DNA of 63,928 nucleotides, the filler included, from Psammoneis japonica (lineage: Eukaryota): the NCBI GenBank assembly GCA_008632985.1. It is 4 parts of 4 records of this genome, joined end to end, with 100 filler letters (N's around TTAATTAATTAA, not from the genome) between each part and the next. Parts side by side here need not be neighbours in the genome. Positions count along the whole stretch, not along the records: positions 1 to 16,246 come from QPGO01000484.1; 3 more parts are not named here. One strand, written 5' to 3'. Under the pieces are notes generated by a model. The model was given only the letters and a program-made list of their open reading frames with translations, was not told where the DNA came from and ran no database searches. A program made the translations under genes and the position numbers. Every line of letters starts with the position of its first letter. The stretch's first letter is position 1. Positions 1 through 50,619 of the stretch are shown one piece after another.

Positions 1-2945
1 AGTTCTTCTTCGATGCCGAGTCCGACCCGAACCCGTGCCGGATCCACCGGTTCCCCAAGCTCACCATCTGTTGCTGTGGGATCTCTCAAGCTCCCGCTCT
101 TTTGGATCTCTGCAATGCTTTGGGAAGTCTCCTGTGGCTCGTCTGCCCCAGGATGATCCCCCCCCTCCTCCCCGCGTGAACGTCGCCTCAAGCACCGCCC
201 TGCGCTGTGTCGCTGCCCCTGTTGTTGGGGCGTGATTGTGTGTGCGATTGCGCTTTGGCATTTTGTGTGCGGCGGTGCTGTCCCTCCCCACCCCTTTCAA
301 TCATTGGACCGCCTCTCTTCTCAAACATGTGAAGTTGTCTCTGCTCTCGATGAGCGCGTCGATCTGTCGCCCGGTGCGTTCGTCCAGTGCCATGCTGTCA
401 AGGTCAGACAATTCAAATGTGAGTTGGCACGCTCAGAGGGAGACAAGCAAGACACCGCCACTCTACCTTTTGAACTTTCTGAGTTGATTGACAGGAGTGA
501 CGATGACGATTTCTTTGATGCATGCACGGAGCTCCCCGTCCATGCGGAACGCTTCTTCGATGCTGATGCCTTCCGCGAGTCTGACTGCTCGAGCCCAGAT
601 GTCTTCGGCATTGCTGACTTGTGTCACGCCCACTACTTTGTCGACTGTGCCAATGCTCCGGAGCTCGCTGTGGAGGATCCATCGGCTTCACCAGCTTTGC
701 CGACCTCCGCTGCACTTCGTGCCATTTCCGGGGAGACCCAACTTTTGCGTCTCGCCGCTGATCCCCAGGCCCTCTTCCACATCGGACCAAGTGATCTCCA
801 GGTTGTTTTTGACACTGGTGCCTCGCAGGCCATCACTCCTGACGAGAAAGATTTTGATGGTCCGATCAAGTGCTGCCGGACCCCACTCCGCCTCGGCGGC
901 ATGGCTGAAGGCATGTGCATCACTGGTGAGGGCACCGTCACGTGGACCTTTCAAGCCAGAGAGGGTCACGAAATTGCTGTCCAGCTCCGCGCCTTTCTCG
1001 TCCCATCCTCCAAGGTTCGCCCACTTTCTCCACAATGTCTCTTCCATGCAGACGGTGTCAAAGGACATTTTTGGGGTGACAGTGAGATTTTCAAGGTTTG
1101 TTTTGCAGACACGCCGGAGTCAACGCTCGAGTGCGACGAGCGCTCCCACTCACCAGTTGGCTGCACGACTCTTGGTTCCATCCATGCAACACAAGTCAAT
1201 TTGAGCGCCATCAGCGACCCGGATGACCTCAATCTGTCTGCTGGACAGAAGCTTCTCAATGAATGGCATCATGCGCGCTTTGGGCACTTAAATTTTCCCA
1301 AGATCCAGCTCCACTCGCGCCATCCGTTCGAGGCCATGAAATTCAAGGCAGCATCCAAATGCGACATTCCAAAATGCGGTGCATGCGAACATGCCAAGGC
1401 TCATCGCCGTTCTTTGAAGTCTGCCATTCACAAATCCGACCCCAAGTGCGATGGAGCGTTGAAGGCTGACCATCTCAATCCCGGCCAGTCCGTCAGCGTT
1501 GACCATTTCGAATCGCGTCTCAAGGGCCGTGCCTGTGATTCATGCGGCAAACCGTCCTCCCAGCAGCATGTTGGTGGCTGCATCTTTGTCGACCACTCCT
1601 CTGGTCACATCCACGTTGAACACCAAGTCGGTTTCTCCGCTGTCGAGACTGTTCAAGCGAAACAGGCATGTGAGACCCATGGCAATGGACACGGCGTGAT
1701 CGTCCAAACTTGCCTCACGACGGTGGCGCTTTCAAGGCCAACCAGTTCGTTTCCCACATCCATGACTCCCAGCAACGCATGCACTTTTGTGGCACCAACG
1801 CTCATCATCAAAATGGTGTTGCCAAACGCTCCTTTCGGCCCACATCCAATGTGGCTCGCGCCATGATCCTCCATGCTTCGATTCACTGGCGTGGCGGCAT
1901 CGACAGCTCTCTGTGGCCCATGGCAGTGCATTGTGCTGCCCACATCTACAACGCCACTCCCGGCACTCATGGTCTGTGTCCCGCCGACATCTTTGCTGGC
2001 TCCACCGTCCCACGCCACCGCCTCCGCAATCTCCACGTTTGGGGTTGTCCCGTCTGCGTCTTGGATCCCAAATTACAGGAGGGCAAGAAACTTCCCCATT
2101 GGCAGCCGCGTTCTCGGCGTGGTGTCTTTCTTGGACTCAGCAACATTCACACCAGTGAGGTGCCGTTGGTCCTCAATCTCAATGCTGGCTCCATCACTCC
2201 CCAGTGCCACGTCGTGTTTGACAATCTCTTCACCACGGTTGCTTCGATCGCGAGGGAGAGCGAACCGCCAGATCACTGGGAAGAGTTGTGGTTGGAGAAC
2301 ACCACTCAAATTCCCTTGGACTCGACCGATGGACCGTTGTTCCTTCAAGACGACTGGCTCACTCCTGCTGAACTTGAACAGAAACGACGACATGAGACTG
2401 GGGAACGCAATGTTCGCGCTGCACGTCAACAGCAGCAGAACTTGCCGAAACCCACTGAGAAACCAAAACCCACAGCGGATCCTTTGCCATCTCCAAATCC
2501 ACCACCGTCTACACCATCGACACCAACAACTGCAGTTGATCCATCACTGACACCACCGCCACAAACAACATCGCTTCAAAACCCATCATCGCCGATGCCT
2601 CCAGTTGACGATCCTCCACCTTCAGTCGCACGTCCGCCGTCTGCTGCTGGCGATGGTCCGGGCACGTCAGTCCCATCCACGACTGCTCCAGTCCCACCTG
2701 AACCCTCATCCACGACTGAGACACCAGGGGTGCGCCGATCCCAACGGTCGAACAAGGGCACGCGCACAGCTGCTCGTTTCGCTGATGAAGTGTGTCTGGC
2801 TTCTGTTGTCCCTGACGATGTTGGAGGACAACAGGCTCAGCTTGCCCATTTGGCTGAGATCCAGACTGACCATGATTCGGGTGTTTTGGATGTTCAGGAC
2901 CCGCGGATCTGCGCCGCCAAGGTCAAACGCAATGCGGATGATCCG
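1..2945 (+). mobile_element. Ty1/Copia (CoDi-like) internal fragment: protease, GAG-pre-integrase and integrase, truncated before RT; degenerate
   Basis: Colinear with 35110-38060. Motifs VVFDTGAS, WHxRFGH, GGCIFVDH, HHQNGVAxR, HVWGCPV, GVFLG. Frameshifts and Tyr-to-Cys/His changes throughout. Confidence 0.93.
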
Positions 2946-4681
2946 TCGCCTTCGACCAGCACCCAGCTTGCCTTCCGAGGCCAATCCGGATGTAAAAGAC
3001 ACTCCATCGAGTCGTCCTTTGCATGAAGCTTTTAATGCAGACGCGCAAGATGAGGCATCTCTGCCTGTTAGCTTCAAGCGCATTCAAAAAGCACAACAAA
3101 AGGACAAGCGCCTACTCTCACGAGCTAAGGACTCGTCCGACTACTCCATTCGCGCGTATCGTGGGGGAAGGTCATCACGACAGTTAATCTGTCATAAGGA
3201 CAAAATCGCAGTACCACAGTCATTGCAGGTTCCGCTAACTGAATGGTACCACGAGACACTGTGTCATCCAGGTGAGACACGTACGGAAATATCTATTGCC
3301 TAGCACTTCTACTGGCCTAGTATGAGGTCTACGGTGCATTCTACGTGCGTTAAGTGCGATCGATGCCAGAAGACAAAACGCCGAACGCAGCGTTAGGGGA
3401 AGCTACCAGAAAAGGTCGCAGAGATAATTCCATGGGAGACTCTATGCATAGATATGATAGGGCCATATAAAATTCAAAGACGCGGAAAGGACACTTTGCA
3501 ATTATGGGCAGTCACAATGATTGACCCAGCAACCGGGTGGTTCGAGATTGAAGAAGTGTCTACGAAACGCGCAGACGTCGTAGCAAACGTCGTGGAACAA
3601 ACGTGGCTATGCAGATATCCGTGGCCAACCCAGGTGGTTTATGACCGTGGGACAGAATTTATGGCAGAATTTAGCCAGATGATTAAAAATGACTATTGGA
3701 TTTTGAAGAAACCCATAAGTAACGGAATCCACAGGCGAATGCCATAGTGGAACGTGTACACCAGACACTTGGTAACATGGTACGTTCCTTTTCAGTACAG
3801 GATATGGAACTGGACGAAGATGACCCATGGAGTGGCATCCTCCCCGCAGTAGCCTTCGCTATTAGAGCTACGGTAAATACGACCACGCGTGCAAGTCCCA
3901 TGCAATTGGTCTTCGGACGCGATGCGGTTTTATCTATTGCCTATCGTGCTAAGTGGAAGTACATAGAAACCAGAAAGCAGAAGCTTATCTACTTAAACAA
4001 CAAGCGTGAAAATCAGAAACGCAAGGAGTATCAATATACCGTAGGGCAATTGGTACTTATCAAACAGGAACAATCCTCTAAATACGGTTCTGACAGCTAT
4101 GCAGGACCCGCCAGAGTTGTCCGTGTATATGACAACGGCACGTTGCGTATCCAGAACGGAGCGCTGATAGATACGTACAATCTACGGCAGATTGTACCCT
4201 ATCACCAGTAAGACATCCTGTCACTTAACGGCCCTGATCATGGGGGAGTGTGCAGTATGCCTCGCTACTGGACAACACGGCGAGACCGTGCATAAGCCTC
4301 TTGTACGTGGCAACGTAGTGTTGTTAACACGTACCTGGGAAGCACGACCACAGGAGGGCGTGGCTCTAGGTCTTAGGCAATTCCAGAAGGATGCTAAGAG
4401 AGCATCCGTGTGAAGCACACTAGCCCGTCGTCTGGCCCACGATGGCAGCGTGATTCCACACGATGACATCACTCGTGCATGGCGCGTGATGGCTTGATTC
4501 ACACGATCCACAACGCGAACGCACGATCGATTTGATGCGATCCAAATGCGAACGAACAGGGATTTGGCAAGATTCCCCATTCGCATGATCCCACTTTCTC
4601 TGCTCTAAACTGGCTCACAATTTTCACAACGACAAAGTTGCAACACATCTTCTTTTCAGCGCCCAGCACATGCACGGGGCA
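2946..4681 (+). mobile_element. Ty3/Gypsy 3' fragment: integrase, PPT and probable 3' LTR
   Basis: HHCC zinc finger (WYHETLCHPG...CVKCDRCQ), PWETLCIDMIGP, DRGTEF, ANAIVERVHQTL. Internal TAG stops; ORF ends at 4211. PPT GGGGGAG at 4242-4248 followed by TGTG. The LTR end is approximate (4670-4681). Confidence 0.85.
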
Positions 4682-6559
4682 CTGTCGACGCTGCTCACGT
4701 CTTTCTTGCACTTCTGATGTTCGGCACACTTGGGACACTTGGGATCGTTGGCCCAGTGGTCCGGAGCACCACATGCATTGCAGGCCCCTTTTCTGGTCTT
4801 GGAAGTGTTGTTGCTCTGAGGGAGCTTGGTGGAAAGTCCGGGCCAATCCTTGTCGGTGACGCAGAAGCGATGCTCCTTCTGCAAAAAGGAGGTGCACGCT
4901 GTGGGCCCGAGTTCATCACAGCCGGAGTCCGCGGTGATTGCCTTGGGATCGCCAAGGCGATGCTTGTGTTCCATGGTCGACACCTTGTCCAACTTGGCGC
5001 AAATCTTGCGATTGAATGCCTCACATGAGGTCTTTTGGCACTTCTTGAGAATGCTCGACCCGAGGTCGACAGGTGACGCACACCCAGCTTGGAGCAGCTT
5101 GGTGAGACGGAGAGCTTCGGCAGCGAACTCAGTCACGTCCTCACCTGGGTGGGATGCAAGCGATGGAGCATCGAGGTCCTCGGCGGCTTGGGCAATGTCA
5201 TGCACGGCAGATGCATTGCAAGCATCCAAAGCCATCATCAAACAGACTTGACCGGGGTGGCACTCAAAGAGATCGTCATGTCCGAATTGGACCTCGATCT
5301 TCTCGCAGAATCGGTGTGAGATTCTAGACTCAACAACCAATCGGGAGAGGGCGACATCATTGTGCTCGTAATCGTCGCAGGCAGTGAAGTCCTTGGCGAC
5401 GTTGGCGTGATGAAGGCACTCGGCAATCACCTCATCGACCGCAAAAGAGTGGAGATGGTCGAATGGCGACACAACCTTCTTCTCGAGCTTCACAGCGAAG
5501 AAGTTCTCCAAGCCATGCTCCTTGACAAGGGTGCGGATAGCTTGAACGAAGTGGGATTGGTCGAGCTCGTTGGAGGTCGTGTCAGTGAGCTTGAGGTTTC
5601 CATCAAACTTGACGACGAGTGTTCCGTCTCGAGCTTCGCGAAGAGCACGTTCGATGTGCAGCAGAATCTTCTTGTCGTGAGACTGGTTGGTTGAGCGGCA
5701 GGAACGAGGCAGCTTGGGCTTGCAGTCATCGTCCAATGGAGAACCGCCCATGCATCGCCCACATTCTGGATGGATCCCTCCATGCCTTGGAGGAGGCGGA
5801 GGTTGATTGGCTCCTGTGGTGGAACTGCTGTTCTTGCCAGCGGGAGCAGCAGGTGTCCCATTGCCGGTTCGAGAAGGTTGAGGAGTCTGACTCCTCTGTT
5901 GCGGAGTCTTGGTGCCCTTGGGGGTCTTGGACGGAGTCTTTGACGGCATTCCGGCCATGGTGGATTTGAGTCAGTGCGCAGAACTTGGTGCTGAAGCTGC
6001 GTGGAGTTTGGGGCACAAACGGCAAAATGAAGCTCTTGATGCAGCATCATTGGGAGACTGCCGCAGAAGCTCAACAATCAATCAGCAATGAGAGTGTCGT
6101 CGTTGAACAGCGTGAGAGGCAGGTCTTGACTTGGCATGGACTCGGAGAGTTCGAAACGACTCAACCCGGGTTTGGTGTCACAACGGCCGAAAATGACGAC
6201 GCTTGACGATGATGATTCCGGCTCCGTGGATCGGTTCCAGTGGCGGGAAAATGTGTACGAGCCCATCAACGAAGGAGGGAGGCTCAGCTGTACGTAGTGT
6301 CGTCGTCGACAGACTGGAGAGGTCTGTCGAATCGATGAACGGCGATTCCGTTTGAAACGGACGATCGACGGCTTGAGATGACTGACTGCAGATGTCGAAA
6401 GAGCTGATGCTCAAGGTTGTAAACTAGTGGCTGTTGTTGTTGCAAAAGTCGTTGACTGAAAATTATGACTGCAACATCGAGCAGAGTTTTGATGGCGGAA
6501 TTTGAAAATTGATGCGCGCGATTACGCGCAGTCGACAGGTAGATTGACAGACGTCAACT
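4682..6559 (-). mobile_element. Copia 5' half (LTR, UTR, gag) of the same family as 32489-39909; PBS deleted
   Basis: Reverse complement matches the LTR at 39715 and gag at 33148-34430 (MAGMPSKTPSKTPK, zinc knuckle CNACGAPDHWANDPKC). Confidence 0.93.
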
Positions 6560-6669
6560 CGCAGCGGAGAGCGGAGGCTGTGTTGACACCGATTATCGGC
6601 TGTCATCCTCTCGAATACTCTCTTATCTGTTCAAGCGCGGCTCTATACATATGGCGCGTCAAAGAGAAT

Positions 6670-9074: not shown

Positions 9075-10399
9075 ATCTGATGCAGTGATTGGGACAGTAT
9101 TTTTGACTGTTGTTGGTGAAAGCTTGACCTGGCACAATAGCGAAGCAATGAGCCATAATTTTTGTGGGATAAGAAATAGCATGGTAGCCCCTCAGCTTAC
9201 TAATCTCTAAGGAGTGTACCTTGAGCTTTACCGAATGCTTGTACAGCACCAAAAGTAGAGGTGAAGCTTCTAAAAACTAGAAAGTGCAGCTTGAGCCCTA
9301 AAGCTTGAACCCCTCACTCGCTGTCCCAGGTGTGGACGTGAAGGATTTGACAAACGTTTCTTTTCTGGAGGCAACCCGCATGAGCCGATCTGACAATCCA
9401 CACAAGTCTTTTTGGCCGAGGATGCAATGGGGTCCTGGACATTGTGGCTCATGAATGCTGCAGACAAGATCAAGGCAGAGCACATGTTTGTGCTCCACTC
9501 CGTGTTGTCCCAGCAGTGGTTCAGCGCGGACGTGGTGTTGTCCAATGAAGTTGATCTCGATGCCTTCTTTTTGGTGTGCCAGTGGTGGTTGTCATTGATT
9601 GGTGGAAAGGTGCCCAGGTCTCGCTGATTGCCTGTTGAGGAAATTGAAAAGTGAAAAACAAATGCTCACAGATTTCCTGCCGTGTTCTCCTTGCTGGACA
9701 GCCAGTTTTTGTCAATGTTGCCCCAAAGGACAAAAGGGAATGTTCTTGAAGACTGCTTGACAGCAATTCCATGCAAGGAAAGACAGCCAGCTACTTTCCA
9801 ATCTTCCAAATTAAATGGCAAGGTTCGTGAACCCATTGCTTGCTGGCACAGTTTTGTAAAAAGGCCTGGCTGCTGTTGCTGCTGTGCTGGATAATCCAGA
9901 CTGCTTGTTGAGCATTGATTTTGTTGTCATTCTGTTGGAGCCAGAGCACAAACAGAGATCATGAAAAACCCGGATGGGTTGAAGAACAGAGACACACAAC
10001 TCATGACTCACAAGGTGGCTCATTGGGTGATTCATTGCTGCACCAGTTTTGCCATTGTCAATCTCTCACCTTTGTTTTTCATTTCACTCTTTGGAGTGAA
10101 TCATTTGGTTTGCATGATTCATCATTCAGCATTGGCAGGCACCTGCCATTGCACAAGTTTGCAGTTTACATTGACACCTTTGGCAACCCACAGCCATCAC
10201 AGACTGCCAAGGCAAGTGCAGTGAGCAGCACAGAAAGCCCAGCAGGATTTTTTTTGGTGACACTCTTTGCAACTGGCACAGGAGGAAAAATGATGAGCAA
10301 AGAGATGGCAAGAATGGCAGTGGTGGCAACAATGACAACAGCAGCAACTGGTCCGACAACAACACAAAGAGCCAGAGCCATGCCCACAAGAGTGACCAG

Positions 10400-13150
10400 A
10401 GCAATGCTGTGGTGTGTCACTGTGTTGCAGCAAACTGAGCCACATGCCTCCAGACTGCAAGCATCAACAAGACACTGCATGTGGCAGACATGAGTTGGGA
10501 ATGAGACCACTTGACAGTGGTTGGTGACAACACTGGCATCAATGCACCACCGGATCCAACCAATTGGCCCACTGTGGCTGAAGCAGGAGTGTTGCATGGC
10601 ATGGGCTGCAGCTGGCAAATGAAAGAAGAAGAGCAACAAGAAGCACAGAAGTGCATCCAGAGCTGTGGTTCTGACAGTGGAGCAGAGTTCCACAAGCCAC
10701 ACCAAGAGGAAGGCAGCAAGCACTTGGTGAGCACTCAGACTGTGCTGCAAAGCTGGAGTTCCCAGTGTGAGGAATTTCAAGCTGTTTTCACCTCAAACCA
10801 GGTTAAAAACTTGTCAATCATGCCCAAAGATGTGGACAGGATGGTTGCATTTTGGGGCCAACCAACAGACTTGCTGAAGGGCAAGACCAAATGTGCACAT
10901 TGCTCCCATGAGAGGAGCAACATTGTGGCTGTCCCATCGGACACACACACAAGAAGCAGAGAGAAGGCACAATCCTCTGCATTGATGTTGTGGAAGCATG
11001 CAGAGTTGGGACACTGCACACAACAGACAAGATGATTCAGTGCCAATTGAGAGTGTGAGACTGAGGTCCAAAAAGCATGTCAATGCATGCAATGCACTGA
11101 ACACAACCCCCCAACAATCAGTTCAGCATGGCTTCATTCAAGATTGTCTTTGTCAAGTGTGACCCCAAGTTTGAGGACATGCTGGCAGAAGTTGCCGATG
11201 GCATGAACTTAGAGCTGATGCCTGCAAACACTGGCAACCATGTTCCTGAAGTTGAAAAGAGCATTGGGACAATCAAAGAGCAAACTCAAGACACTGCACA
11301 CCACCTGCCATGCAAGATGATGCCCAAGTTGATGTGTGAGCATTCCATGACAAAGAATGTTGTCATGTCAAACATGCACCACACCAAGAAGGAATTTTCA
11401 ACATGTGCAGTCCACACACTGTTGTGCAATGAAAAAACCTTGACTGTGACAACAAGCGCACTTTGAGCTTGCATTTGGTGAATTTGTCATGTCTCATGTT
11501 GAGAACAACCCAACAAACACCATTGACATGCACAGCATTGACAGCATGCATCTGCAACCATGCTTTGACATTCCCAAGGGTGGCCACTGTGCTGTGAACC
11601 TGCACAACATGGGCAAGCTTCTCAATCTCCACAAGTGCACTGCCGTGCCCCTGACTGACACATGTGAGCAGTCAAGAATCAAGAAGATGGCCACAGCACA
11701 AGGTGTCAAAGACCCAAGTTGCAGGCAAATGTGGAGACAACCTGCATTGTGCTGACTGGACTGCAGGAGAGTGGACAATGATGAAAGTGACAGCAAATAA
11801 AAAAGTGAAGAAAACAAAAACAAAAACAAACACACCAGCAGTGCCAACTGCCTGACCAAGTCAGAAGATGAAGACTGTGATTGTGAAGCAAACTCAGACA
11901 ACGAGCATGAAGAAACAAATGAAGTCCTTGCTGATGAAAGGCTCAGCTCCAATGAGCAGCACAAGAGCCAAGAAGTCAAAGAAGAAGATGGAGATGACAA
12001 AGAGTCAGAGGACAATTCATGTCCCACACAGAGTGACCAGGACTGGCAAATCATTCAATGTCAAATCACGTGAACACAGAGAAAAGAAAGTTTGATTTTC
12101 AGGAGCGGCAGACAACACAAAAGAAAAGCCCAAGCAGAACAGACTTGAGTGCTGTTGCCCACTTGCAAGCAGCTGAATGTGAGCCCCAATCCAGAGGATG
12201 ACATCAAGTGCAGCGCAGATGCAGCAATGGTGCTGGTGTGCACAACTCATCATGTGCAAGATTGACAGCTGACTCCAATCAGGAAAGAGCACCTCCTTTG
12301 TCCAGCAGCATTTGCTGCACAAAGACCCAAAAGCATTTGTCCAGAGGGGGCATGACATCTCAGAGAAGGAGGTTGGACAACTCCATGACAGGGTGTGCTT
12401 TGCACCAATGTCAGTTGAAGACATGACTCTGACTCAGAGGACCAAGGCTGTGATTGCCTTGATGCTCCAGCAAGATAGCTGCCACAAAAGGGCCGGCAGT
12501 TTGCAGCTGAAAACCAGCTGCAAAATGACTGGACAAGGAATTCAGCTGGCCTGATGGCACCATTGGAAGGAACACCAACAAAGACAGCCATCATTGATGC
12601 CATGGAAGGGCACAACACAATGAGTGCTAATGTGCCAAACACATTTGTGCAGACATTGACTTTGGAGCCTCAGGAAGGCAAAGACCAGATCATGATGAAA
12701 ATTGCAGGAGTGTGTTGGTTGCCGCACTGGCAAGCATTGATCCCCACCTGCCTCCTGTGTGGGCTCCATGTGGTCATGGAGAAAAGGAAAAGAGTCCTCT
12801 GTGTGTTGAAGTTGCTGGAGCTGTTTGCAGCATGTTGGTCACAGCTCTGCTGTGGTGCAAGTGATTTTGCAAGGACTTGGAGAAAAAATCGGGTTCAAGG
12901 TCAACCCATGTGATGTGTGCACTGCCAATCAAACAGTCAATGGCACCCAGAGCACTGTGCATTTCCTTGCAGACACCTCCCACCATTGAGCCACGTGAAC
13001 CCAAAAGTCAATGTGACAAATTTCTGAGTTGGCCAAACAAAATGGATGGGAGCAATGGAAAGTCATTGCAACATGAGGGAAGAAGCTTGGCTGCTGGGAG
13101 GAGGGGATTCTGTGCAGCTGGATGAAAAAATGAGAGACACACACCTGGCA
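10400..13150 (+). mobile_element. Old, heavily decayed Copia element of a different family (integrase and RT remnants)
   Basis: HVPEVEKSIGTIKE (integrase), FGEFV..HVENNPTNT, NVPNTFVQT, FKVNPCDVCTANQTVNG (RT-like NPYD). Almost no TpA. Boundaries are approximate. Confidence 0.7.
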
Positions 13151-13949
13151 GCATTTGAAAGGCAGGAATCCCATGGCAAAAGCAACAAAAGTTGTCCACA
13201 TTTTACACTCTGTGACTGTGATGTGCTGGAAAGGCAATGCTCTGCGCTTTTGGGCTTTCAATTGCACAACAATGCCAGCAAAGTCCCAAAGAGCAACAGA
13301 AAGTCTTGTCGCCAGATCCCGGTCAAGATTTCCTCAAGTTCTTTGCTCATTTTGAAATGTTGCGCAGCACTTGGTGCCATCAAAATTTTCAGTGGAGTCA
13401 ATTAGAAAGGCTGCAATTGTTGCTTTTTTGCTGTTGTCCTCAAGCACATTGCAGAGACAAGTGGCTGGGACACTTTCTTGCTGTTGTCAATCTTTGCCTG
13501 CTCCCTCTTCTTTCTTGAGGAAGGAGACACAAGCTTGTTTGTCTTTGGGTTGTTGACAAGCAACAGTTTGAGTTGGGGAACTTTCTTGCTCTTTATTTTT
13601 TGCACTCATTGAGGAGGTTTGTCATTGCTGCTGTTGCGTGACAAGGGGCAATCAAGAAGCAATGGCTCAGTGCCTTTGTGTCAGGTCATTGAGCTGTTTG
13701 GGCAGAATCAACAAAACAAGAGACGGTGTGCTGACAGGTCTTGTTGGCTGACTCCTTGATTTTGGCTTGCAGCGCTGCGGGGCTGGAGCTTTGCTTTTTT
13801 AGATGAGAGTTGCTGGGTGTGCTGTCAAACATTGTGAGGCAGCAGAAAGCCCACACAGATGTTGCAGTGGAACCCATGTGGCTTTTGATTTTGGCTGTTT
13901 TCCAGCTCAGGTGCCCACCTCCATTGTTGTTGTCATTGAGCTGTCCTCT

Positions 13950-14228
13950 GTCAAGTGGAGTCTCTTGTGGACAGTCTGTGAGACAGAGCAGAGTTGGCAC
14001 AGGCACAAAGAATGACCATGCTCTGTCACTGCTGCACAGATCAAAATTTCACTTGTGATGTTGGCGACACTGGAGATCTTCATTGCAAGTGGAGCCTCTT
14101 GTGGACTGTCTGCAAGACAGAGCAGAGTTGGCACAGGCACAAGGAGCAACCATGCTGCTCTTTCACTGCTGCACAGAGATCAAAATTGCACTTGTGATGT
14201 TGGCAGCATTGAAGACCACCTTCATTGC
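13950..14228. repeat. Imperfect tandem duplication, unit about 134 bp
   Basis: caagtggag(t/c)ctcttgtggac...gagcagagttggcacaggcacaa...cacttgtgatgttggc occurs at about 13952 and 14086. Confidence 0.8.
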
Positions 14229-15457
14229 ATGGAGAGCAACAGAGTTGGTGAAGGACACCAGCTCCTGTGACAGCAGTGTGCTTGGCAATGATGCAGGAGC
14301 AGCAGCAAGTGACAAAGCTGTGGCACAACATTGTTCGCTCCCGCCCATCCAAACAATGGGTGTGTTGCTGTGGCCAGTTTGCAGGTTGGGGATGAGGTGA
14401 GCCACAAGGCAGTGGAAATGGAACATGAAGGCTTTGGCACCTGTGAGAGCCACAGTTGGTGAGAAAAAGTTGGCTCACTGCACACAGCGCCACTGTGCAG
14501 TGGAGTTGTCACTCCCAAGTGTGAGAACACCCAAAACAGGTTGAAAATCCAAAGTCCCACAGAGCAACTCCACCGCTGTGTTGTGCACCATGCAACTGTG
14601 AAGTGTGCATTGTGAAAAATGCATCCATCCTCAGATCTGTTTTGCACAAGAGGCGCAACCACAGTGCAGCCAATGACCGCCATGATGTCATGCACAAAGT
14701 GGCCACAGCTCTGGAAAAATGCTCGTGCCTGGTGGTGGCAATGGAGGGCAGCATGATGAGCTTTTGAGCAACCCTTTTGCCAAGATTTTGACAGGCAAGC
14801 AGAGCACTGCAGTCTGTGCAAAAACATGTTTTTTGCAGTGCCCGAGTGCCAGGACGAGGTGCCCAAAGCTCACGCCACCTTCACAATGGTGGGTCCACCA
14901 GGCCAGCCACCACTTGGGTGGTTGCTTGGCCTCTGGGCCCCTTTGAGGTTTTCATCCCCCACAGGGGAGTTTTTCACGTGTCATGCACTCCTCCGCTTGG
15001 GTGTGTGATGAAGTGTCTGCAGATGGTCAGCACCATTTTGTGGAGCAAATCCAGGTGCAAACAGACAGAGAGGTGGTGTGGGGTGCACTCCAGTTCATCT
15101 CAGTCACTGCTCTTGGATGTGGTGAGTGCAGCAGGATTTGTTTGGATCATGGCAATGCGGTGCTCTTTCTGCATTTCTTGTCAATTCCAATTCATTGTTT
15201 GGCATGTCCCACAATGGCGCACATTGTGCCTTTTCTTGTTGCAGCAAAGAGCAAGCAAGCAATGCACCATGCTGACGTCATTCGTCTGCTTCCAAAAAAA
15301 GGAAAAACGAGAACTCTGACGTAAAAACTCACGATCACAAACCCTTGCGTGACTCGATTGAAACACAATGCAATTGCACAGAAAAGAAATGTTCGGGGGG
15401 AATTTGTCATCATTTCTCGCTGCAAATGGTTTCGACAGACACACATTTGTGATGATG

Positions 15458-16246
15458 ATGGTGATTCATTGTTTGCCCTGCTTCTTGATGCTTCTCTTGG
15501 TTTTTCCGTCGAGCATGGGTCAACTCCCAAGTGGTGATGACTTGATCTTCAGAGTGGGCAGCTGCAGCTCCTCCACAGCATGCCTTGATGCCAAAAACAC
15601 AACAGCAGGAAACAATTCATGCACTGGCGTGCTTGCTTGCAATTCGGCATCCAACATGATTGCAAATGACAGGACCTGCAAAGGCAAACAGGCTTGCTCA
15701 AACCCAGACAATTCCGTGGTGGAAAGTCAATCTTGCAAACATCCTGCTGCTTGTGTCAATGTGGGACACTCCATCATAAAGGCCAGCTGTTGCAACTGCG
15801 AGTGCTCACGTCAATGGCTTTTTGAAACGATGATTGGAAGGGGCTCCTGCAAAGCTGAAGATGGCTGTGGTTTGATTGAGCACTCGACCATTGACTCAGG
15901 TTCTTTCATTGGCTGTGGGTCCTGTGAAAGGATGCGCTGGGTGACAACTGGCAAAAATGGCTGCATTGGTTCAGGCACTTGCATGGATCTCTCTTCAACA
16001 AAGGCAAATGATGGCTCCTGCATTGGCAGCACAGCTTGTGAGGAAATTTTCGATGGAATTGTCAAAAGCGACAGCTGTGTCGACAACAACGCCTGTTGAC
16101 ACCAGCTCCTGTCACTTGCAGAAAACGAGTCATGCCATGCAAAAGGTTTGTGCGGTGAAATTGACAATGCTGTTGTTGGACCTGACAGTTGCTGCAAAAG
16201 AGGATCCTGTCAACAAGTCTCCCACATCACAGTTTGCACCCACAGC
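15458..16246 (+). pseudogene. Secreted Cys-rich repeat protein (xGxxSCxGxxAC-type repeats), degraded
   Basis: Hydrophobic leader followed by ~20-aa repeats (GNNSCTGVLAC, GRGSCKAEDGC, DGSCIGSTAC). In-frame TGA at 16097-16099. Nearly TpA-free. Confidence 0.6.
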
Positions 16247-16346
16247 NNNNNNNNNNNNNNNNNNNNNNNNNNNNNNNNNNNNNNNNNNNNTTAATTAATT
16301 AANNNNNNNNNNNNNNNNNNNNNNNNNNNNNNNNNNNNNNNNNNNN
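16247..16346. other. Artificial scaffold spacer
   Basis: N-run + TTAATTAATTAA + N-run, 100 bp; the same spacer recurs twice more. Confidence 0.95.
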
Positions 16347-18923
16347 AAGTGCATCGTCTCGCAGAAAAAAGCGTCCTGATCTCCGAGTTCAAAAAGAGCA
16401 AAGTGCATCGTCTCGCAGGAAAAAGCGTCCAACTCGTTCCGGCAGCTCGAAAGAAAAAGGACAACCAGCGCAAACTGGATCATCAGCAATTGCTTCAAGT
16501 GGTCACAATGACAGTGCTGAAAGAGAACGGGGCGTTAAGGACGAGACGCAAAATACAAGCGAATATCATAGCCGCACCAGTCGGGAGAGGTCCGTCAACA
16601 GCACAGCCACAGCAAGCCTTGCGCTATCGGCTGCCGCGTATGTCGCGCCAGATGCTTTCACAGTGACGTCTGGAGACCAAGCTGCACAACCCGAAGAACC
16701 GGACAGAGATGACCGCGTCACAGTTACTTCAGATTCCAACAAAGTGATGGAGATGGATCCAGCACAAGTCGTAGAGGCGGTTCCTGCTACTTCTGATGGT
16801 GGTGGTGGCGGACAGAATGAGAAAGCAAATGACACAACGCGAATTAGTGACGAGGATGAGAATGCTGAAGATGAGCTTCATCGCAAGTACCTTCGCAAAC
16901 GATTCATTATTCCGGGCGTTGTATTGTTGGCGATTGCAGCGATTGTCAGTATTGTTGTTGCAGTAAAGCCGTGGGACACAGGTGGTGGAGGGAGCCCCAC
17001 TTTCCCCCCTACTGTTTCCCCTACTGTTGCACCCGCCACAGAGACTACCGAACGAGCCACCGGTTTGGTCATGAGTTTGATTGGTATTGATACCGAGTTT
17101 GATGAAAATGATTCCGAGTTGTGGGCTACGGCAACCAAAGCATTCGTCGAGGATTATTACAACACTCGTCGTCGTCGTCGTGGCCTTGGCTATCTCCAGA
17201 CCCCTCGTATATTACAAGTATCGAATATACAGAATGTCGAGACGTCTTTGGATGTTACTAACACCATTGTGGTTGAAGATGGCAATGGTGGAGAACCATC
17301 CCTTCGAGTCACATACAACCAAGCTATCACGTATACTTTTGAAGACAGCAGCAACGAAAACATTTCCATGGATGCCATGGTGACCGAACCATTCAAGACG
17401 TCTGATAGTCGATCGGCCTACCAAAAAGACCTCCAGGCGGCGGGCACCAGTGCTGGAAGCAACATTTTTGACAATTTGATTGGCACTAGTGAAGTTTCAA
17501 CCAGCACAGCTGCTCCGACACCGTCACCTACAAATAGCATTCCAATTACGGAACTACCAACACAAGATCCCGCGTCGCCACCGTCGACTCCGGGTCCAAC
17601 GACTCTCAATCCAACATCGTTGCCGACGACAAACCCTACTCCTCGTCCAACTCTCAATCCAACACCTCGTCCTACACTCAATCCAACGCCTCGTCCAACT
17701 CTCAATCCAACTCCACGCCCCACTCCATCACCAGCTCCAACAACACCCAATCCCACCAGTGGTGGTGGCAGNTGCATGGCAAAGATGCAAATGATCTTTT
17801 TGGCAATTCCGCAGGCTTGTCTTGTGATGGCAGTGTCATTGCCATTGGAGCGCAGCAATGGACCTTTTCTTCCAATCCCGGCTGTGTTGTTGTCAATCAG
17901 TGCAATTTGAGCACCCAACAATGGACCCAAATTGGCCAAGAATTGATTGGACAAGATGGCGGTGATGGTTTTGGCAAGTCTGTTTTGTTGAATGGCAGTG
18001 GTGCAATTCTTGCCATTGGTGCTGACAGGAATGACAGTGGTGGTGAGGATGCCACCATGTGCTTGTGTTTGAATGCAACTTTGGCTCAAATCGTTGGGAT
18101 CAAATTGGCAGCGACATTCTTGGACAAGGTGCCATTCATCAATTTGGCTTTTCCGTGTTGCTGTCGGAAGCAGGACACATTCTTGCCATGGGAGCTGCCA
18201 CGAAAAATGGCGTGGGCTCTGGATCAGTTCAATTGTTTCAATGCAACCGCAACACATCATCCTGGCATCAACTCAGACAATCACTCATGGGTCAATCCAT
18301 TGATGATCAATTTGGCTTTTCCGTTTCCTTGAATGTGCAGGGAACCATTGTTGGTGTTGGAGCCAACAGAAATGATTCGGGTGGAAGCGATGCGGGCCAA
18401 GTGTCGGTGTTTGAATGCAATTCTGCTCGTCAAATGGGATGTTGGGCATCCAATCAATGGACAAGTTGTTGATGGTTGGTTTGGATCTTCTGTTTCTCTT
18501 GATGACAGTGGTTTGATTGTGGCCGCAGGTGCACGTGGAAGCAACGAGAGAGTTTTGGTTCATTCGCACGACCGCTTGACATCGACATGGAATCAACATG
18601 GCCAAATTCTCTTGACATCACAGCCTTGGAATGTTTTTGGTTGGTCCGTGTCGTTGAGTGGCAATGGAAACGTCCTTGGCGGCGGAAGCATTTGCATGAC
18701 GTCAATGGATGTCCTGCGGGGTNNNNNNNNNNNNNNNNNNNNNNNNNNNNNNNNNNNNNNNNNNNNNNNNNNNNNNNNNNNNNNNNNNNNNNNNNNNNNN
18801 NNNNNNNNNNNNNNNNNNNNNNNNNNNNNNNNNNNNNNNNNNNNNNNNNNNNNNNNNNNNNNNGCTGATGTCAATGGCGACGATTCCGGATCCGCGTACG
18901 CATTCACGGTAAATGACAATTAG
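16347..18923 (+). CDS. 3' part of the MLKL-like receptor kinase gene: TM, ectodomain, Pro/Thr stalk and FG-GAP-like repeats (repeats degraded or gapped)
   Basis: 16347-17298 equals 31436-32388 except for one base. TM FIIPGVVLLAIAAIVSIVVAV; TLNPTPRP repeats; FGxSVSL...VGVGA...DSGGSDAGQVxVF repeats; ends DSGSAYAFTVNDN*. Confidence 0.7.
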
Positions 18924-22149: not shown

Positions 22150-23400
22150 TGTCTAGTGTTTTCCAATCAACCAGTTCATGCTTGTACCAGTCCGGGAATC
22201 CGTCATGTTGATGGGTGAAGTGGATTTCGCTGTCGCCATGAAACCTGCATGCGGCAACCGCGGCATTCATGCCGGTTCCGCATCGCTTCCAGTCGCGGTG
22301 CCGCCACATGCCTGCAACTCTTTTTTTGTGGGAGCCTTGTTTGCCTGTAAAGCGCTGCTCAATCAGAGCTGTCATTGGACGTGCAACCGATTCGTTTGGG
22401 TTGCCGGGGCCGTGTGTGTCGTCACAGTGAATGTCCGCATACCGCGCAAGTCGGAGCTGATCGCCTCGCATCATGGTCTGGCTGCAGCTGGTCCGTGCCA
22501 CCGCCAAGTTCTTCCAAGCTGCAGACTGAACAACGCAGTTCAAAATTTTGTCCTCAGCAATGCGAGATAGAGCATCCGCAGGCAGCTTGTCGTGAGCTGA
22601 TGCAAACTCAGTGAGCAAATTTTGGGTGCATCGCTCCTTGTGTGCCACCAGAGCGACGTCAACTGCCTCTGATCTCACAACGAATTTTGGATTGGGAGGT
22701 TTGTGCTCCTCCCAAGATGAACAATGCTGCAGTGACCAAATGACATGCTTGGCCGACTTTGGCGTGACGTCTCTTTTTGACACTTTCCAAGAAGTGCCGG
22801 TCGACCTGGTCTGCGTCAAGTGAGGCGGCCCCGACAGAGCCGGCGATTCGTCCACCCATCTTTTGCATGCACTCCACTCAGTGACAAAGTGCCATCCACC
22901 TTGGGTGGTGTGATGGTTTGGGCCAACAAGTCTCCCATGGAGACTAGAGACACCATCGTGTGGGTCTCTTCTTTGCATTGTGACAGCCTCGAGGGATCGT
23001 TTTTGGGGTGCACCCACCTCACTGTCAAAAGAAAAGAGGTTTTTGAAATCAAACGCTCACTTGTGGCGGTCGACAAGTGGAGTCGTTTCGAAACATGTTG
23101 ACATTCGAGTGGGAAGAAAGAACATTTCGACAAGTGGATTTTGTGTCATGCCCTGTTCTGAAGGTTCTTGTCTTCACCAACCACAGGCCTGTCCGGGGTC
23201 CGGGAACCGGTTCCAGGGGTGGTTCCGGCGCCGGCCTCCTGCGGGCAGGAACTGCTGAGGACTCCCCCCGGATGGCTCGGTCAACCCGTGATGTCAGGGG
23301 AAAGCGTGCCCCCCAATCAGCGGTGGTTGTTCCTGCCAACCGAGGTCGCGCGACCCACCACTCGAGACTTGTGACTCAAAGTCACGAGCGCTCGTGCCAT
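22150..23400 (-). mobile_element. Crypton-like tyrosine recombinase (Ndc10 domain II-like) remnant, C-terminally truncated
   Basis: MMRGDQLR..YADI, GMWRHRDWKRCGTGMNA...CRF and FPDWYK follow the order of Crypton/Ndc10 motifs (RGE..R, RH.D...C..GA.A...RF, DWY). TpA-depleted. Confidence 0.6.
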
Positions 23401-24808
23401 TGAGACGACTCTCTCTCTCTCTCTCTCTCTAGAGTGGCCAGTGGCCTGCTCTCGCTCTCTCTGGAGGCAGAGCCAAAGCAGAGAACAGAGAGCAGGTCCA
23501 GAGAGCAGAGGCCACTGCTGTTGTTGCCATGGTGACTGCTGTTGCCATCTCTGCTGCTGTTGTGGCTCTGCCTCCTCTGCCAGTTTGCTGCTCTGTCATT
23601 GCACGAGCACTCACGAGCCATCGCATCCATGCCAAGCTCATCTCATCACTGTGTTGCATTGGTGACCACTCATTGCAGCTTTTCAAAGGCCACACTTGAC
23701 AAAAACCAGAGCTGTGCACTTTGTGAAGAAATGCTGCAGATGTTTGGTTGGCCAGCTGCAGATCCGCAGCACACCAATGTGAAACATGATGCTGGTCAAT
23801 TTCGGTTGACCCAGAGTTTTCAAACAAGCTGCCCATCACTTTTTTTTGCCTGGCTGCCCCCAACTCTGACTTTTCATTTTTGAGTCTCACTGCTGCTGGG
23901 TTTGTTTTGCACGTGGCTCCTTCAGTGTTTGCCAGTGCTTTGTCAAATCTTTCATGCCAGCCCTTGTTGGTGAGTTTCCTGCTTGAGCCTGGTTGGAGAT
24001 CCGGGATTCCAGGAAACACAGCCTTGTGCACTTGCAGCAAAATGTCCAAATCTTGATTTGTTGTGCCATTTGCACATGCCTTCCAAGCAGTGTCACATCA
24101 TCCACCCACGACTTCTTTGTTCTTGAATCTCAACCCACAAATTTGCCAGCATGTCTTGTTCTCTGATTTTTCACTTCAGCACAGCTCTCTCCAACTCAAA
24201 ACACTTTGCTGAGCACATCACAGTTGCTCTGTTGGAAGTCTCAAAAGGTCCCCTGGTGCCAAACTGGTGCAGCATCTCTTGCTTGGGCAATGGCAGCCCA
24301 GAGCTGGTCTTCAGCCATCTCATCACACTCGGTCACCACTGCAAGTCCAATCTCTTTGGCCAAAACTTTCTCTTGCACCACCACCTTTTTGCACTTCAAC
24401 ACAGTGGGTGCCAGAAATCTGGCTGCTGGCGGGTGGTGTCGCGACAAAGCAAAAGGCATGCTCCAATGTTTTGTGCACAGAGCTTCTGTTGTGATGGTCC
24501 AAAAAATGACAAATGTTCAGACACCCATGACACCCTGTCAATGTCATCGTCAGCTCCCGCGGGTTTTTGACAAGTTCTCCGTGCAGTGTCAGTTGTCACT
24601 GCGGTGATGGTCTGTGCGCTAATCCGGAGCACATCACTGCCATGCCAATTTCGAATGATTGCGGTTGATGATTCGTTCGATTCGAGTCCGGGTTCTGAGC
24701 TCACCGATCATGGATTTACCGCACTGGATGGAGCCGCGGCCGTCGCAAAACAACACCATGATGCCTCTTTACCTCTCTTGTTGATACTACTGTAATTGCA
24801 TTGTCATC

Positions 24809-27384: not shown

Positions 27385-27669
27385 GACTACAGAGGATCGT
27401 GGACGGCACGCAACTTTAGAATTGTTTTAGTTTACCTTGCGCATTTATAATTTATAACTACCTCAGCATACATTGATTGTCTTCAGCCTGTGATTCATAA
27501 CTACCCCAGCATGCATTGATCGATTTCAGCTTTTGTGTGTTAGTCTTTTCAATTGAGAACTAGATGCATTTACAATGCCTCCAGTTCCATTTGAGATGTG
27601 CATCTGGCTTTTAGAGGCACATGCTGGGAAGCCATTTTGCTTCATTTTTCCTTGAGCAACTTCCACAAG

Positions 27670-28520
27670 AAGCTCGAAAATGCCCAACCTGGCCTGATTG
27701 CGAAACTTCTGCGTGCAGCCAAGATGGAAGACTGCAATGGATCTCCAACTCCTGCCCTTCCCATCTCTGTTGGCAGTGACACAGAAGGCCCACCATTCGA
27801 TGAACCTTGTGACTGCCGATCTGTGGTTGGCATGTTGATGCATCCAGTGCCCAACAGCTGTCTGGACATCATCTGCACTGCCCATCAATTTGCTTGGTTC
27901 TCCTGTGCTCCAAAAGCCTCCCATGCCATTGCTGTCCAATGCATTCTTTGACACTTGAAGGACACGACTGACAAAGGGCTCATCCCAGCCCCAACCATGG
28001 ATCAACGACTTGATTGTCATGTTGATGCCAATTTTGTGGGTCTCTTCCATGTTGAGGATGATCAGGTTCCTGCTTCTGTTAAGTCTCGCACAGGATGTCC
28101 AAGCTGCAGCGGCCCCTCATGGTTTTGTCTCTGCTGTTGGAGGCAGAGAATGTTTCTCTCCCAATCAATGCATGGCCTCATTCCCCTTTGTGAGATCTTG
28201 AAGGAAATCAATGCACATGCTTTTGGTCAGCTGGACAGGAAGAATGGCATCACCACACATGCCAAGGCTTTCCAACCCACCAACGATGGAACCAATTCAC
28301 CCCCATTGCCTCTGCCAGCATCAGCTTGCTCACACGCCAAAACTGTCCCCACAAACCAAGCACACCATCGTGCCTTGTCACCAGTTTTGTGCTGAAGTTG
28401 AGGCTTTGGAGATCAAGATTGAGCCTGTCAGCTCTGCTGCACAGCTTGCTGACCAGTTTGCTGGGGGTTTGACTGCTGCTGATCTGTTCTGCACTTTTGT
28501 GGGGCCCTCATGGGCTGGCG
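27670..28520 (+). mobile_element. Decayed Copia RT/RNase H fragment
   Basis: QPGLI...MEDCNGSPTP, DCRSVVGMLMH, CHVDANFVG, SPQTKH, QLADQF; homologous to 38810-39660. TpA-free. Confidence 0.85.
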
Positions 28521-29639
28521 ACTGTTTGTCCTGCTTCTCTTGATTTTGCAGGCAGGCTGGGAGAAAATGAGTCAATTTGCTGCTGTTCTGTTGCTTTCCC
28601 CAAACAACAATGGCAAGTCTGCCACCCGTGGCAGAATGTGCAATCAAGGAATTGCTGCGGCAACATGAAGAAAACGCAGCAAGCCACCAAGGAAGAAGAG
28701 TGTCCGTCAACGGCTGTTTTGGAGGTCCTGCTTCACTTGAGCTGCACCAATGTAAAAGTGATGCAGGCTTCACACTTTTTCATCTTGCAGTCTTCTTTGC
28801 AAACATCCTTTTGAAATGCCTGGCACCACGTGCAAAGCTTTTGGGTCCATCAGGAATGAACCGCTCTCACAGCTCTTTTTGTGCTCGATCGACGACAATG
28901 GGGCGAACAACCCAAGGTCCAAATTGTCATGGGTCTTTTTGGCAAATGCAAATGACTGTGCACCGGAGTGGAGTGGCTTTCCATGAGACAACAAACGCCA
29001 ACGTTGGAAAACAGGGTGGGTCTTTTTTCAACAATGGCAGACTTGACAACATGCATTGATTGACCAAGGTGGCAAAACACGCCACGTGTGCACCAACAAC
29101 AGCATCATCATTTCTGCTCGACAACAACAGGGGATGATTTCGATTGGTGTTGTTGGTTTGGTTGTTGATGTTGAAGTGAAGTGCGGCATTGGCGGCCTCT
29201 CTTTTTGGCACGCACCGGCCGGCTGGCACGCACCGGTGTGACTGCACCTATGTGGGTGACAGACGGACGGACCAACCGGATGGCCACATAGTACGCCCGC
29301 CTAAAACCAACATGCGTGCAGCGCAACGCTTGAACCGCACGATCGTTCATCGCGGGAATAAGCATGCAAGCAGTTGGAAGTTGAAGTTATTGGTTATTGT
29401 TCTGTTGTTCTTCTGTTATCCCATTGCTTCATTTAATTCGTTCCTGCCCTTGTCTCACGGGCAAGCGTCGCTGTTCTACAGCATAATCGATCTCGCCTTG
29501 TTGCCATTGTGTTGGTGCCTGTCTCCTTTGCAGTTGCGTTTCTGCTGAGCAGAGGAACCACCTCTTGTCTCGCGTCTCACCGATCCGGACTCCGCAATTT
29601 TGATTCTGCATCTCGCAGAAAGACACAAAAACAGCAGAC

Positions 29640-32388: not shown

Positions 32389-32488
32389 NNNNNNNNNNNN
32401 NNNNNNNNNNNNNNNNNNNNNNNNNNNNNNNNTTAATTAATTAANNNNNNNNNNNNNNNNNNNNNNNNNNNNNNNNNNNNNNNNNNNN
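32389..32488. other. Artificial scaffold spacer
   Basis: N-run + TTAATTAATTAA + N-run. Confidence 0.95.
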
Positions 32489-47599: not shown

Positions 47600-48496
47600 A
47601 TCAGAAACCTCTAATGATCTTCACAATCTCCCAGGCCCTTCCGTTCCCTAAAAGCCATAAACACGTCAGAAAGTGGCTTTGTAGTCTGCAACATGAACCT
47701 AGTAATCTCAAAGGTTTCACTGTCTCTGATGGCGATCGGAATTATTTTATTAATAAGCTCTCATCCAGTCACTTCTTAGTCATCAAAGAAGGACACAAAG
47801 ACGCACATTCGAGTGGGGACATTTCTGATGGCAGCCAGAGCTGCAGTGGTCATCCAGCAACAAGTGTGACATTGACCGGACCTTTCATCTCAACTCAAAA
47901 GGCCTTGACGCTTGCATGCACAAAAGTGCGCTGGCACAAAATCAACCAAGCCATGGAATGGTTGAAAAAAACAGTCCTCTCTGTCACAACATTTCAGGTG
48001 CACAAGAAGGCTCCAAGAAGGTTCTCAGGTTCCTGCTGCAGATGACTGTGCAAGACAACACTGTTGAAGATTGTCATCACAAAACATTGTTTTTAAAGCT
48101 GCGTGACAGAAATCTGGGCATGTGTCATGTGATTGCCCTCATGTCATCAGGCTTGAAAACAAACGGGTTGAGTTGTTTCGTGCATGACAAAAAAGACAGC
48201 ACAAGTTCCAAACAGATCATTCTCAATGGAAAACAGTTTTGTGCATTGCTTGCTTGTTGAGATTGGCAACATGCAAGATCTGGCTTGAGATGACTTGATA
48301 AAACAGGTTGTGAGAGAACCAAGAAGAGACCCGATCAGCACAATCACTGATCAGAACTGACTTCTGACGGCCTCTTGAATGTCCAACATGTCAGTTGATG
48401 CACATGTGTCAGAGAGGGCACACTTGGTCATGGAGCACATGTGCCTGTCTCATTCACTCTTCCCCTCCATGGCGCAAGAATCATGCACACCATTGG
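47600..48496 (+). mobile_element. Probable Helitron-like remnant, TpA-depleted
   Basis: VTLTGPF...KVRWHKINQAMEWLKKNSPLC resembles the VR..KV..AL.WL..NN.LY motif found upstream of Helitron Rep. Confidence 0.5.
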
Positions 48497-48596
48497 NNNN
48501 NNNNNNNNNNNNNNNNNNNNNNNNNNNNNNNNNNNNNNNNTTAATTAATTAANNNNNNNNNNNNNNNNNNNNNNNNNNNNNNNNNNNNNNNNNNNN
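48497..48596. other. Artificial scaffold spacer
   Basis: N-run + TTAATTAATTAA + N-run. Confidence 0.95.
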
Positions 48597-50336: not shown

Positions 50337-50619
50337 TTTCTTGCTTTTTTCGGCTAACTGTAATTTTGTCAATGAGCAAATCGCTGCAATGCAGTTTTGT
50401 GAGAGCAAGGTTCCGATCGGTGCTTGTCATCGTCGTGTCATGTTTGAGGCAGGCTTGTAGGGCCCTACTAGACTAGCTTGTAAAACATAATAATAGTGCA
50501 TGTGCTCACTCACAAGGAACGCCGTCCATCCATCCGTCCGTCCGCCCCCCTGCCGCTGACCGCGCTTTTTTCAATGGTGCATTCCCATTTTTTCTCTCGG
50601 CAAGTCGCATCACTCTATC

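Follow-up and report, generated by a model that had tools for sequence, protein, structure and literature searches.

TpA as the likely ancestor of most TpG/CpA differences between copies of a diatom Ty1/copia retrotransposon

Copies of a Ty1/copia long terminal repeat (LTR) retrotransposon in a 63,928-nt stretch of the genome of the diatom Psammoneis japonica (assembly GCA_008632985.1; ‘the window’ is this whole stretch) repeatedly read TG in one copy where another reads CA. Which ancestral dinucleotide gave rise to both states, and what changed it? The original prediction, made from the same DNA, was that a TA ancestor had suffered A>G on either strand, independently in each copy. We find that most of these TG/CA columns derive from TA and a few from CG. 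A TA-ancestral, post-integration, regional and TpA-specific transition process very probably explains most of them.

The window consists of four contigs of about 16 kb each, split by three spacers. It is not a single chromosomal stretch, and distances or neighbourhoods that span a spacer are not real. Copies of the element were found by self-comparison of the window and domains with Pfam. Copies A and C lie on the first contig and copy B on the third.

16247–16346, 32389–32488, 48497–48596: spacers between contigs, each N44-TTAATTAATTAA-N44
1–2945, plus strand: copy A, a Ty1/copia LTR retrotransposon with gag, protease, integrase and the start of the linker to the reverse transcriptase (RT); 92.3% identity to 35111–38063; Pfam SH3_retrovirus
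32489–39909, plus strand: copy B, a nearly whole Ty1/copia element at the start of contig 3, with both LTRs; gag-pre-integrase, SH3-like and RVT_2 (Pfam)
35111–38063, plus strand: the stretch of copy B that aligns with copy A and holds the partner states of 48 TG/CA columns
32489–32645, plus strand: 5' LTR of copy B, truncated at the contig start; 93% identity to 39753–39909
About 39714–39909, plus strand: 3' LTR of copy B, beyond the erased tract, with its TAs kept
4682–6560, minus strand: copy C, an LTR (6377–6560) and 1.7 kb of 5' internal region; 92.2% identity between 4682–6384 and 34429–32723

Copy A is cut by the contig start and its homology ends at 2945. 4682–6560 is a separate minus-strand copy and not a continuation of copy A. 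The LTR of copy C (6377–6560) is 95.7% identical to 39897–39714 and 93.1% identical to 32633–32489. The copia relatives that carry a species name come from Fragilaria crotonensis.

Copies A and B (pair 1; 1–2945 versus 35111–38063) align over 2956 columns, with 2717 identical, 225 mismatches (194 of them transitions) and 14 gap columns. TG/CA accounts for 44 of the 49 two-base mismatch runs. With longer runs included there are 48 TG/CA columns, 30 with TG in copy A and 18 with CA, compared with a mean of 1.6 and a maximum of 6 under column shuffling (2000 trials). Pair 2, copy C with copy B (4682–6384 versus the reverse complement of 32723–34429), has 24 TG/CA columns among 128 mismatches in 1708 columns. 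Only 3 columns of pair 1 are TA/TA, and no TA-versus-CG column occurs between copies. By arithmetic from the column counts, about 77% of the A/B differences fall at the two palindromic pyrimidine-purine steps. A/G mismatches in pair 1 affect 7/583 positions after A, 8/807 after G and 69/802 after C. Purines after A or G thus differ by about 1%, so ApA is no target, background divergence is about 1%, and copies A and B are young. The strings that the original prediction quoted are all present where it placed them:

215–230 (A) and 35330–35345 (B): GCCCC-TGTTGT-TGGGG versus GCCCC-CATCAT-TGGGG
385 (A) and 35500 (B): cagTGc versus cagCAc
1159 (A) and 36276 (B): ggcTGc versus ggcCAc
1532 (A) and 36649 (B): ccTGtgat versus ccCAtgat
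1666 (A) and 36783 (B): gcaTGtgag versus gcaCAtgag
32532, 39796 and near 6478 (minus strand): LTR strings gaCAttg, gaTAttg and gaTGttg, respectively

The differences lie in DNA that has lost nearly all TpA. TpA is almost absent (rho 0.02–0.19) from 28.8 kb of the window, and rho TA is about 0.5–1.0 elsewhere, host genes included; the TA-poor blocks hold 81 TAs versus 1442 in the other 33.8 kb. The three copia copies are largely TpA-erased and the host genes are spared.

1–3050: TA-poor block, with 8 TA, rho TA 0.06, rho TG 1.45 and rho CA 1.41
4401–6250: TA-poor block
9301–16250: TA-poor block
17601–18800: TA-poor block
22201–24750: TA-poor block
27601–29250: TA-poor block
33151–39050: TA-poor block
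47801–48500: TA-poor block
50501–54700: TA-poor block
63151–63900: TA-poor block

Per kb, the blocks have a deficit of 39.8 TA and 17.1 CG, 56.9 together, and an excess of 55.3 TG plus CA, a balance that assumes that they began with the composition of the remaining window. In copy B, TpA is erased in the interior (about 33300–39050) and in part at the 5' end, whereas the last 850 or so bases retain it. At the edges, the TA-poor state outruns the end of homology by about 50–100 bases on the copy A side and about 260 bases on the copy C side.

A TG/CA column could also arise from a methylated CG, if 5-methylcytosine was deaminated on the top strand in one copy (giving TG) and on the bottom strand in the other (giving CA). 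The coding sequence separates the two ancestors. As an outgroup, 60 homologous diatom-type copia proteins (P0001–P0060, 50–65% identity) were aligned to the copy B frame at 35721–37505, with copy A codons read via the A/B DNA alignment, and a column was called informative if at least 50% of at least 30 homologs agree on the residue. In agreement with the predicted TA ancestor, TA fits 11 of the 14 informative TG/CA columns, CG fits none and neither fits 3. A control on 8 CA-versus-CG columns that span the codon 3|1 boundary gave a CG ancestor for 7 of them. Homolog residues at TG/CA columns include:

36279: Tyr in 30/45
36341: Asn in 46/47
36647: Thr in 54/60
36698: Ile in 52/60
36968: Met in 43
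37067: Asn in 58/59
36139: Leu in 38/39

At conserved Tyr positions the copies mostly encode Cys or His. At the 12 Tyr-consensus columns, copy A encodes Tyr once, with Cys at 5, His at 3, Phe at 2 and Leu at 1, and copy B encodes Tyr at 3, Cys at 4, His at 3, Phe at 1 and Leu at 1. Tyr makes up 0.5% of the copy B frame versus 2.9% in the homologs. Three of the four internal examples of the original prediction outside 220–225 are homolog Tyr or Tyr/Phe codons (36279, 36651, 36786). No hypermutated relative was seen among the 120 homologs listed, where most consensus Tyr are kept and whole-protein Tyr is 1.6–3.9%. The RT frame of copy B has 4 Tyr in 569 amino acids; its YVDD motif is intact (38631–38645), and the TAT there (TA at 38634) is among the few TAs that survive in the erased tract.

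CpG decay is real in these copies: pair 1 has 69 CG-versus-TG/CA columns and pair 2 has 33. Its expected yield of TG/CA columns is nevertheless small. From 161 CG/CG columns and 38+31 single-copy CpG losses in pair 1, independent hits predict 7.3 double hits, half of which (3.7) would be visible as TG/CA, compared with 48 seen; for pair 2 the figures are 0.6 and 24. In the first 700 bases, CG is read in other copies at 3 TG/CA columns (given below) versus 1.2 expected, hinting at some hot CpGs. Arg codons are mostly intact, with CGN kept in both copies at 11 of 17 Arg-consensus columns, while Tyr codons are mostly gone, and the copia copies keep their CpG (rho CG 0.8–0.9) against a rho TA of 0.06. 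CpG double hits as the main source of the TG/CA columns are therefore refuted, and we give that explanation very little credence.

A minor share of the columns does come from CG. We read the states of other copies in 378 short k-mer contigs of one public run, whose platform is not on record and which is possibly the assembly's own data; the column states given here and below come from 40 of 148 difference rows. Two further runs gave no aligned contig. These contigs read CG at three TG/CA columns (A 223–224, 631–632 and 671–672), so the TA explanation does not cover every column. At column A 223, five contigs at full depth have T>C, and there is no difference row at 224. The leading example of the original prediction, TGTTGT/CATCAT (220–225; 35335–35340), is therefore CG-derived in its second half (223–224). 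The three CpG-derived columns are probably close to the full set, in agreement with the 3.7 expected, because the rows listed have near-total support, which favours columns where all other copies keep CG. At four columns the contigs agree with copy B. Another set of states, from a third copy, has CACA at 2791–2794, where A has TGTG and B has CATG, and TA at 2629, where both A and B have CA.

A gag outgroup for 220–225 and 385 gave only two weak homologs (29% and 24% identity), unusable for polarity. A search for relatives in metagenome contigs gave 97 pattern matches, none confirmed. A stop-codon test, in which a TA ancestor would place TAG at 35787 in the copy B frame, was dropped: the copy A open frame reads this column in another phase, and the contigs give CG there.

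The two LTRs of one retroelement are identical at integration, which dates the changes. The LTR pair of copy B differs at 11 of 157 positions. At 8 of these the 3' LTR has TA and the 5' LTR has CA (5) or TG (3); a further one is a CpG change, and the remaining two are of other kinds. Of the 11 TA sites of the 3' LTR, 8 are CA or TG in the 5' LTR, so the change came after integration, on DNA.

This bears on an RNA-level origin, in which ADAR-like A-to-I editing of the element RNA (with a 5' U preference) or RT error was fixed by retrotransposition. In animals, ADAR is known to act on retroelement RNA. ADAR also favours 5' U, as noted in the text of a recent preprint (bioRxiv 10.64898/2026.01.13.699255). 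A pre-integration step, however, would have left both LTRs of copy B alike at the 8 of 11 TAs where they now differ, and this difference bears out the predicted case against RNA editing and RT error. Nor would such a step extend TA-poor DNA some 50–260 bases beyond the homology ends, and hits on the sense strand only would give TG and never CA. Both products occur at Tyr codons (Cys:His 5:3 in A and 4:3 in B), and rho TG is close to rho CA. An RNA-level origin is accordingly given almost no weight, less than the CpG double hits.

The same counts support the claim that both strands were hit. The symmetry inside the TG/CA columns adds no support, because it is true by construction: each column holds one TG and one CA. 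Strand symmetry also fails as the argument for a double-stranded substrate that it was originally taken to be, since an enzyme specific for single strands and acting on either would look alike. An A>G change would, moreover, be indistinguishable from T>C on the other strand. A runs test for strand-phase clustering of the TG/CA columns was negative in both pairs (pair 1, 21 versus 23.5 expected, P=0.26; pair 2, 14 versus 12.9, P=0.75). The first nine TG/CA columns of pair 1 all have TG in copy A, and at least one of the nine (223) is CpG-derived.

That the copies were hit independently, as predicted, is upheld by the informative columns mutated in both A and B, 12 of which have the same state and 11 a different one (sharing is somewhat undercounted, as some shared states are invisible). 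Of such columns in the copy B 5' LTR and the copy C LTR, 3 have the same state in both and 2 do not. A TA density of 34–43 per kb in unmutated DNA gives copy A about 100–125 TAs at the start; the roughly 45 TA-derived TG/CA columns are then 40–50% of erased sites, close to the 50% expected, which fits separate hits on two copies.

Could the pattern be an artefact of assembly or base calling, with real DNA that is TA, perhaps base-modified, and a consensus that calls TG or CA? The pattern is very clean and restricted to blocks, and 0.36 of the sampled 31-letter words of copy A are in the public run, close to the estimated fraction that avoids all such sites. The contigs contain inner N gaps of 141, 543, 444 and 1 N. 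Sized inner gaps are typical of paired short-read scaffolds, not of nanopore consensus, and going by such typical assembler behaviour the gaps suggest short-read scaffolds here, which speaks against a calling artefact. The k-mer contigs of the public run (possibly, as said, the assembly's own data) themselves carry TG/CA, including B-like and third-copy combinations; 95 of the 378 are at least 99% like copy A, and in the 40 difference rows a CA of copy A becomes TA only at 1606 and 2629. Had reads of both strands been mixed, TA and CG calls would be expected as well, but they are not seen. According to the preprint text, the same mutations arose de novo in Bigelowiella natans with Illumina data (bioRxiv 10.64898/2026.01.13.699255). 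We consider an artefact very improbable, a shade more so than CpG double hits and a shade less so than an origin in RNA.

Several points, besides the three CG-derived columns, weigh against TpA-specific hits after integration as a full account. Short-read scaffolds could be mosaics of several genomic copies, and what is said of ‘one copy’ or of the LTR pair would then be weaker. The comparison within the window had no more than two or three copies per column. Tyr codons mutated in both copies share their state at 6 and differ at 1, an excess of sharing over full independence (about P=0.06), and some hits may predate the split of copies A and B. A uniform hit probability misfits: 3 TA/TA and 48 TG/CA columns predict about 34 TA-versus-TG/CA columns and 9 are seen, so near-saturation inside the tracts is needed, together with a few refractory or newly arisen TAs. 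Finally, Pfam found no transposon domain in 17 open reading frames (ORFs) of the other TA-poor blocks, only DUF7640 at 15368–16099; in the window it is thus the copia copies that point to mobile DNA as the target.

Parsimony on the three LTRs is a further such point. Taken alone it is undecided, with 10 changes if TA is ancestral and 9 if TA is derived, slightly favouring the opposite direction, like that of repeat-induced point mutation (RIP): TG/CA would be ancestral, C>T at CpA/TpG would have made the TAs, and TA-rich copies such as the copy B 3' LTR would be the mutated ones. This direction also has the usual mutation bias, G:C>A:T, on its side. It would, however, require a pristine protein without Tyr where 60 homologs conserve Tyr, in copies that disagree (Cys versus His) at the same residue. 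Host genes and the remaining window have normal TA, and no single step leads from a TG in A to the CA in B or the reverse. Polarity is taken to be decided by this coding evidence, not by LTR parsimony, and we regard TG/CA ancestry as the least probable of the rival explanations.

Two other candidates were rejected, and a third is disfavoured. GC-biased gene conversion would raise every A:T>G:C change, not TpA alone. Selection against TA in the element would not replace conserved Tyr, nor differ between copies. WA-motif mutagenesis by polymerase eta is at odds with ApA at background (7/583).

The process that changed TA acts on DNA, after integration; it is TpA-specific, makes only transitions, hits either strand, is regional and nearly saturating, and spares the host genes of the window. 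It is also self-limiting per site, as no TA-versus-CG column is found. We propose the following course. The founding element would have had TpA at most of the TG/CA columns. After each integration, regional and near-saturating TpA-specific transitions would have struck the chromosomal DNA, giving TG where the top-strand A changed and CA where the bottom-strand A changed. The first hit would remove the target, so TA would never turn into CG. Copies struck separately would end with about half of the ancestral TAs as TG in one and CA in the other. Decay of methylated CpG would have accompanied this more slowly, affecting about 18% of CpGs per copy, with about 4 of the 48 TG/CA columns expected from it and at least 3 seen. 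We infer that the process is enzymatic and aimed at silenced mobile DNA. By analogy with the candidate chemistry in B. natans, adenine deamination to hypoxanthine in a 5'-TA context is our leading guess, and a modified-thymine route that gives T>C would fit the sequence data equally well.

Further observations concern the TA-poor blocks. Surviving TAs are non-random: purine-TA-pyrimidine sites are 3 of 81 inside blocks versus 432 of 1442 outside, and pyrimidine-TA-purine sites 26 of 81 versus 251 of 1442. At mixed-flank sites, the product that alters the A before a pyrimidine is more enriched (18.2 versus 10.8 per kb, CpG contribution included). These figures hint at a flank preference of the process. 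In 9301–16246, 27601–29250, 47801–48500 and 50501–54700, CpG is also lost (rho 0.17–0.43; 9851–16250 has rho TA 0.03 and rho CG 0.17), and such CpG-poor, TpA-poor blocks are probably older targets. TAA and TAG are gone from erased blocks and only TGA stops are left, giving long spurious ORFs in several frames on both strands. Between copies A and C (2945–4682) the DNA bears no relation to the element, and its core at about 3050–4420 is normal in TA (rho 0.97).

The signature agrees with the TpA hypermutation described in the text of a preprint on Bigelowiella natans. In mutation-accumulation lines of that alga, two integrated viral regions gained 231 mutations, of which 230 were A>G or T>C and lay without exception at TpA (bioRxiv 10.64898/2026.01.13.699255). 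The DNA hit there came from giant viruses and virophages integrated in the genome (Mettrop et al., bioRxiv 10.64898/2026.01.13.699255), and adenine deamination, from an ADAT2 homologue named as a candidate only, is the chemistry proposed (bioRxiv 10.64898/2026.01.13.699255). To judge from that text, both cases have only A:T>G:C transitions, only at TpA, with both TpG and CpA products. They differ in host, a chlorarachniophyte (rhizarian) there and a diatom (stramenopile) here, and in target, viral there and LTR retrotransposon copies here. Erasure is near saturation here (rho 0.02–0.07) versus 0.45 reported for the nucleocytoplasmic large DNA virus region in B. natans. The mutations there were seen to arise de novo, with rates orders of magnitude above the genomic average, whereas ours are deduced from copy comparison. 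We found no description of TpA hypermutation in diatoms in the literature, and the preprint's text, supplements aside, does not contain the word diatom. This kind of process has so far been reported only in one preprint, from one unrelated alga.

Other known systems share single features. RIP in Neurospora and other ascomycetes is a regional, DNA-level C>T process at CpA/TpG, triggered by duplication. Like the diatom process, its regional dinucleotide-specific transitions kill integrated transposon copies, spare neighbouring genes and hit both strands; the direction is opposite, as RIP makes TpA and the diatom process removes it. As to a duplication trigger, the mutated copies are repeats; a 953-base identical pair on the second contig has normal TA but is possibly an assembly overlap. 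Methyl-CpG decay likewise acts on a palindromic pyrimidine-purine step, on either strand, with TG and CA as its products. It is at work in these copies too, but it removes CG, not TA, and accounts for only some 4 of the 48 columns. In antibody somatic hypermutation, polymerase eta causes A:T mutagenesis at WA motifs. It resembles the diatom process in making A>G at TA, on DNA, and differs in that WA includes ApA, which is at background here, and in making transversions too, against the transitions seen here. RIP is also named in the Discussion of the B. natans preprint (bioRxiv 10.64898/2026.01.13.699255).

If this reading of the copies is true, integrated mobile DNA has its TA turned into TG or CA in a second, distantly related algal lineage, by a process that is the mirror image of fungal RIP. 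To our knowledge, no established natural enzyme of eukaryotic genome defence makes A>G or T>C on DNA. The footprint is most informative at its TG-versus-CA columns, which record separate post-insertion hits, on either strand, in which one hit makes a site immune. A wider proposal is that DNA editing, guided by chromatin or RNA, serves diatoms as an active defence and turns the A of 5'-TA into G on either strand of integrated retrotransposons, near saturation; that the enzyme is shared with the rhizarian Bigelowiella and is an old trait of the stramenopile-alveolate-rhizarian group; and that this is the first natural defence by adenine deamination in chromosomal DNA. Taken as a whole we hold this proposal to be tentative, possible and rather on the doubtful side. 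There are also practical consequences. Ages of diatom transposons from LTR divergence would be badly inflated unless TpA and CpG sites are masked, because 9 of the 11 copy B LTR differences are of TpA or CpG kind. TA-free stretches without TAA or TAG yield long false ORFs, which gene callers would over-predict. A natural TpA-directed DNA editor would be of interest to builders of base editors.

About 90 bases just inside the copy B 5' LTR (32633–32722) are absent from copy C (compare 6377–6390) and are flanked in copy B by the short direct repeat CAGTCA..CATC, which looks like a deletion in copy C between the repeats. Host genes in the window comprise ferric reductase, kinase, M14 peptidase, amine oxidase and epimerase genes.

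56519–57706: epimerase gene, whose best named matches are all diatoms (75–85% identity)

The second contig carries the ferric reductase and protein kinase genes. Its first and last 953 bases are identical (16347–17298 versus 31436–32388, 0 mismatches) with normal TA (32 TA/TA columns), and could reflect an assembly overlap, or a unit of about 15.1 kb that is circular or tandemly repeated.

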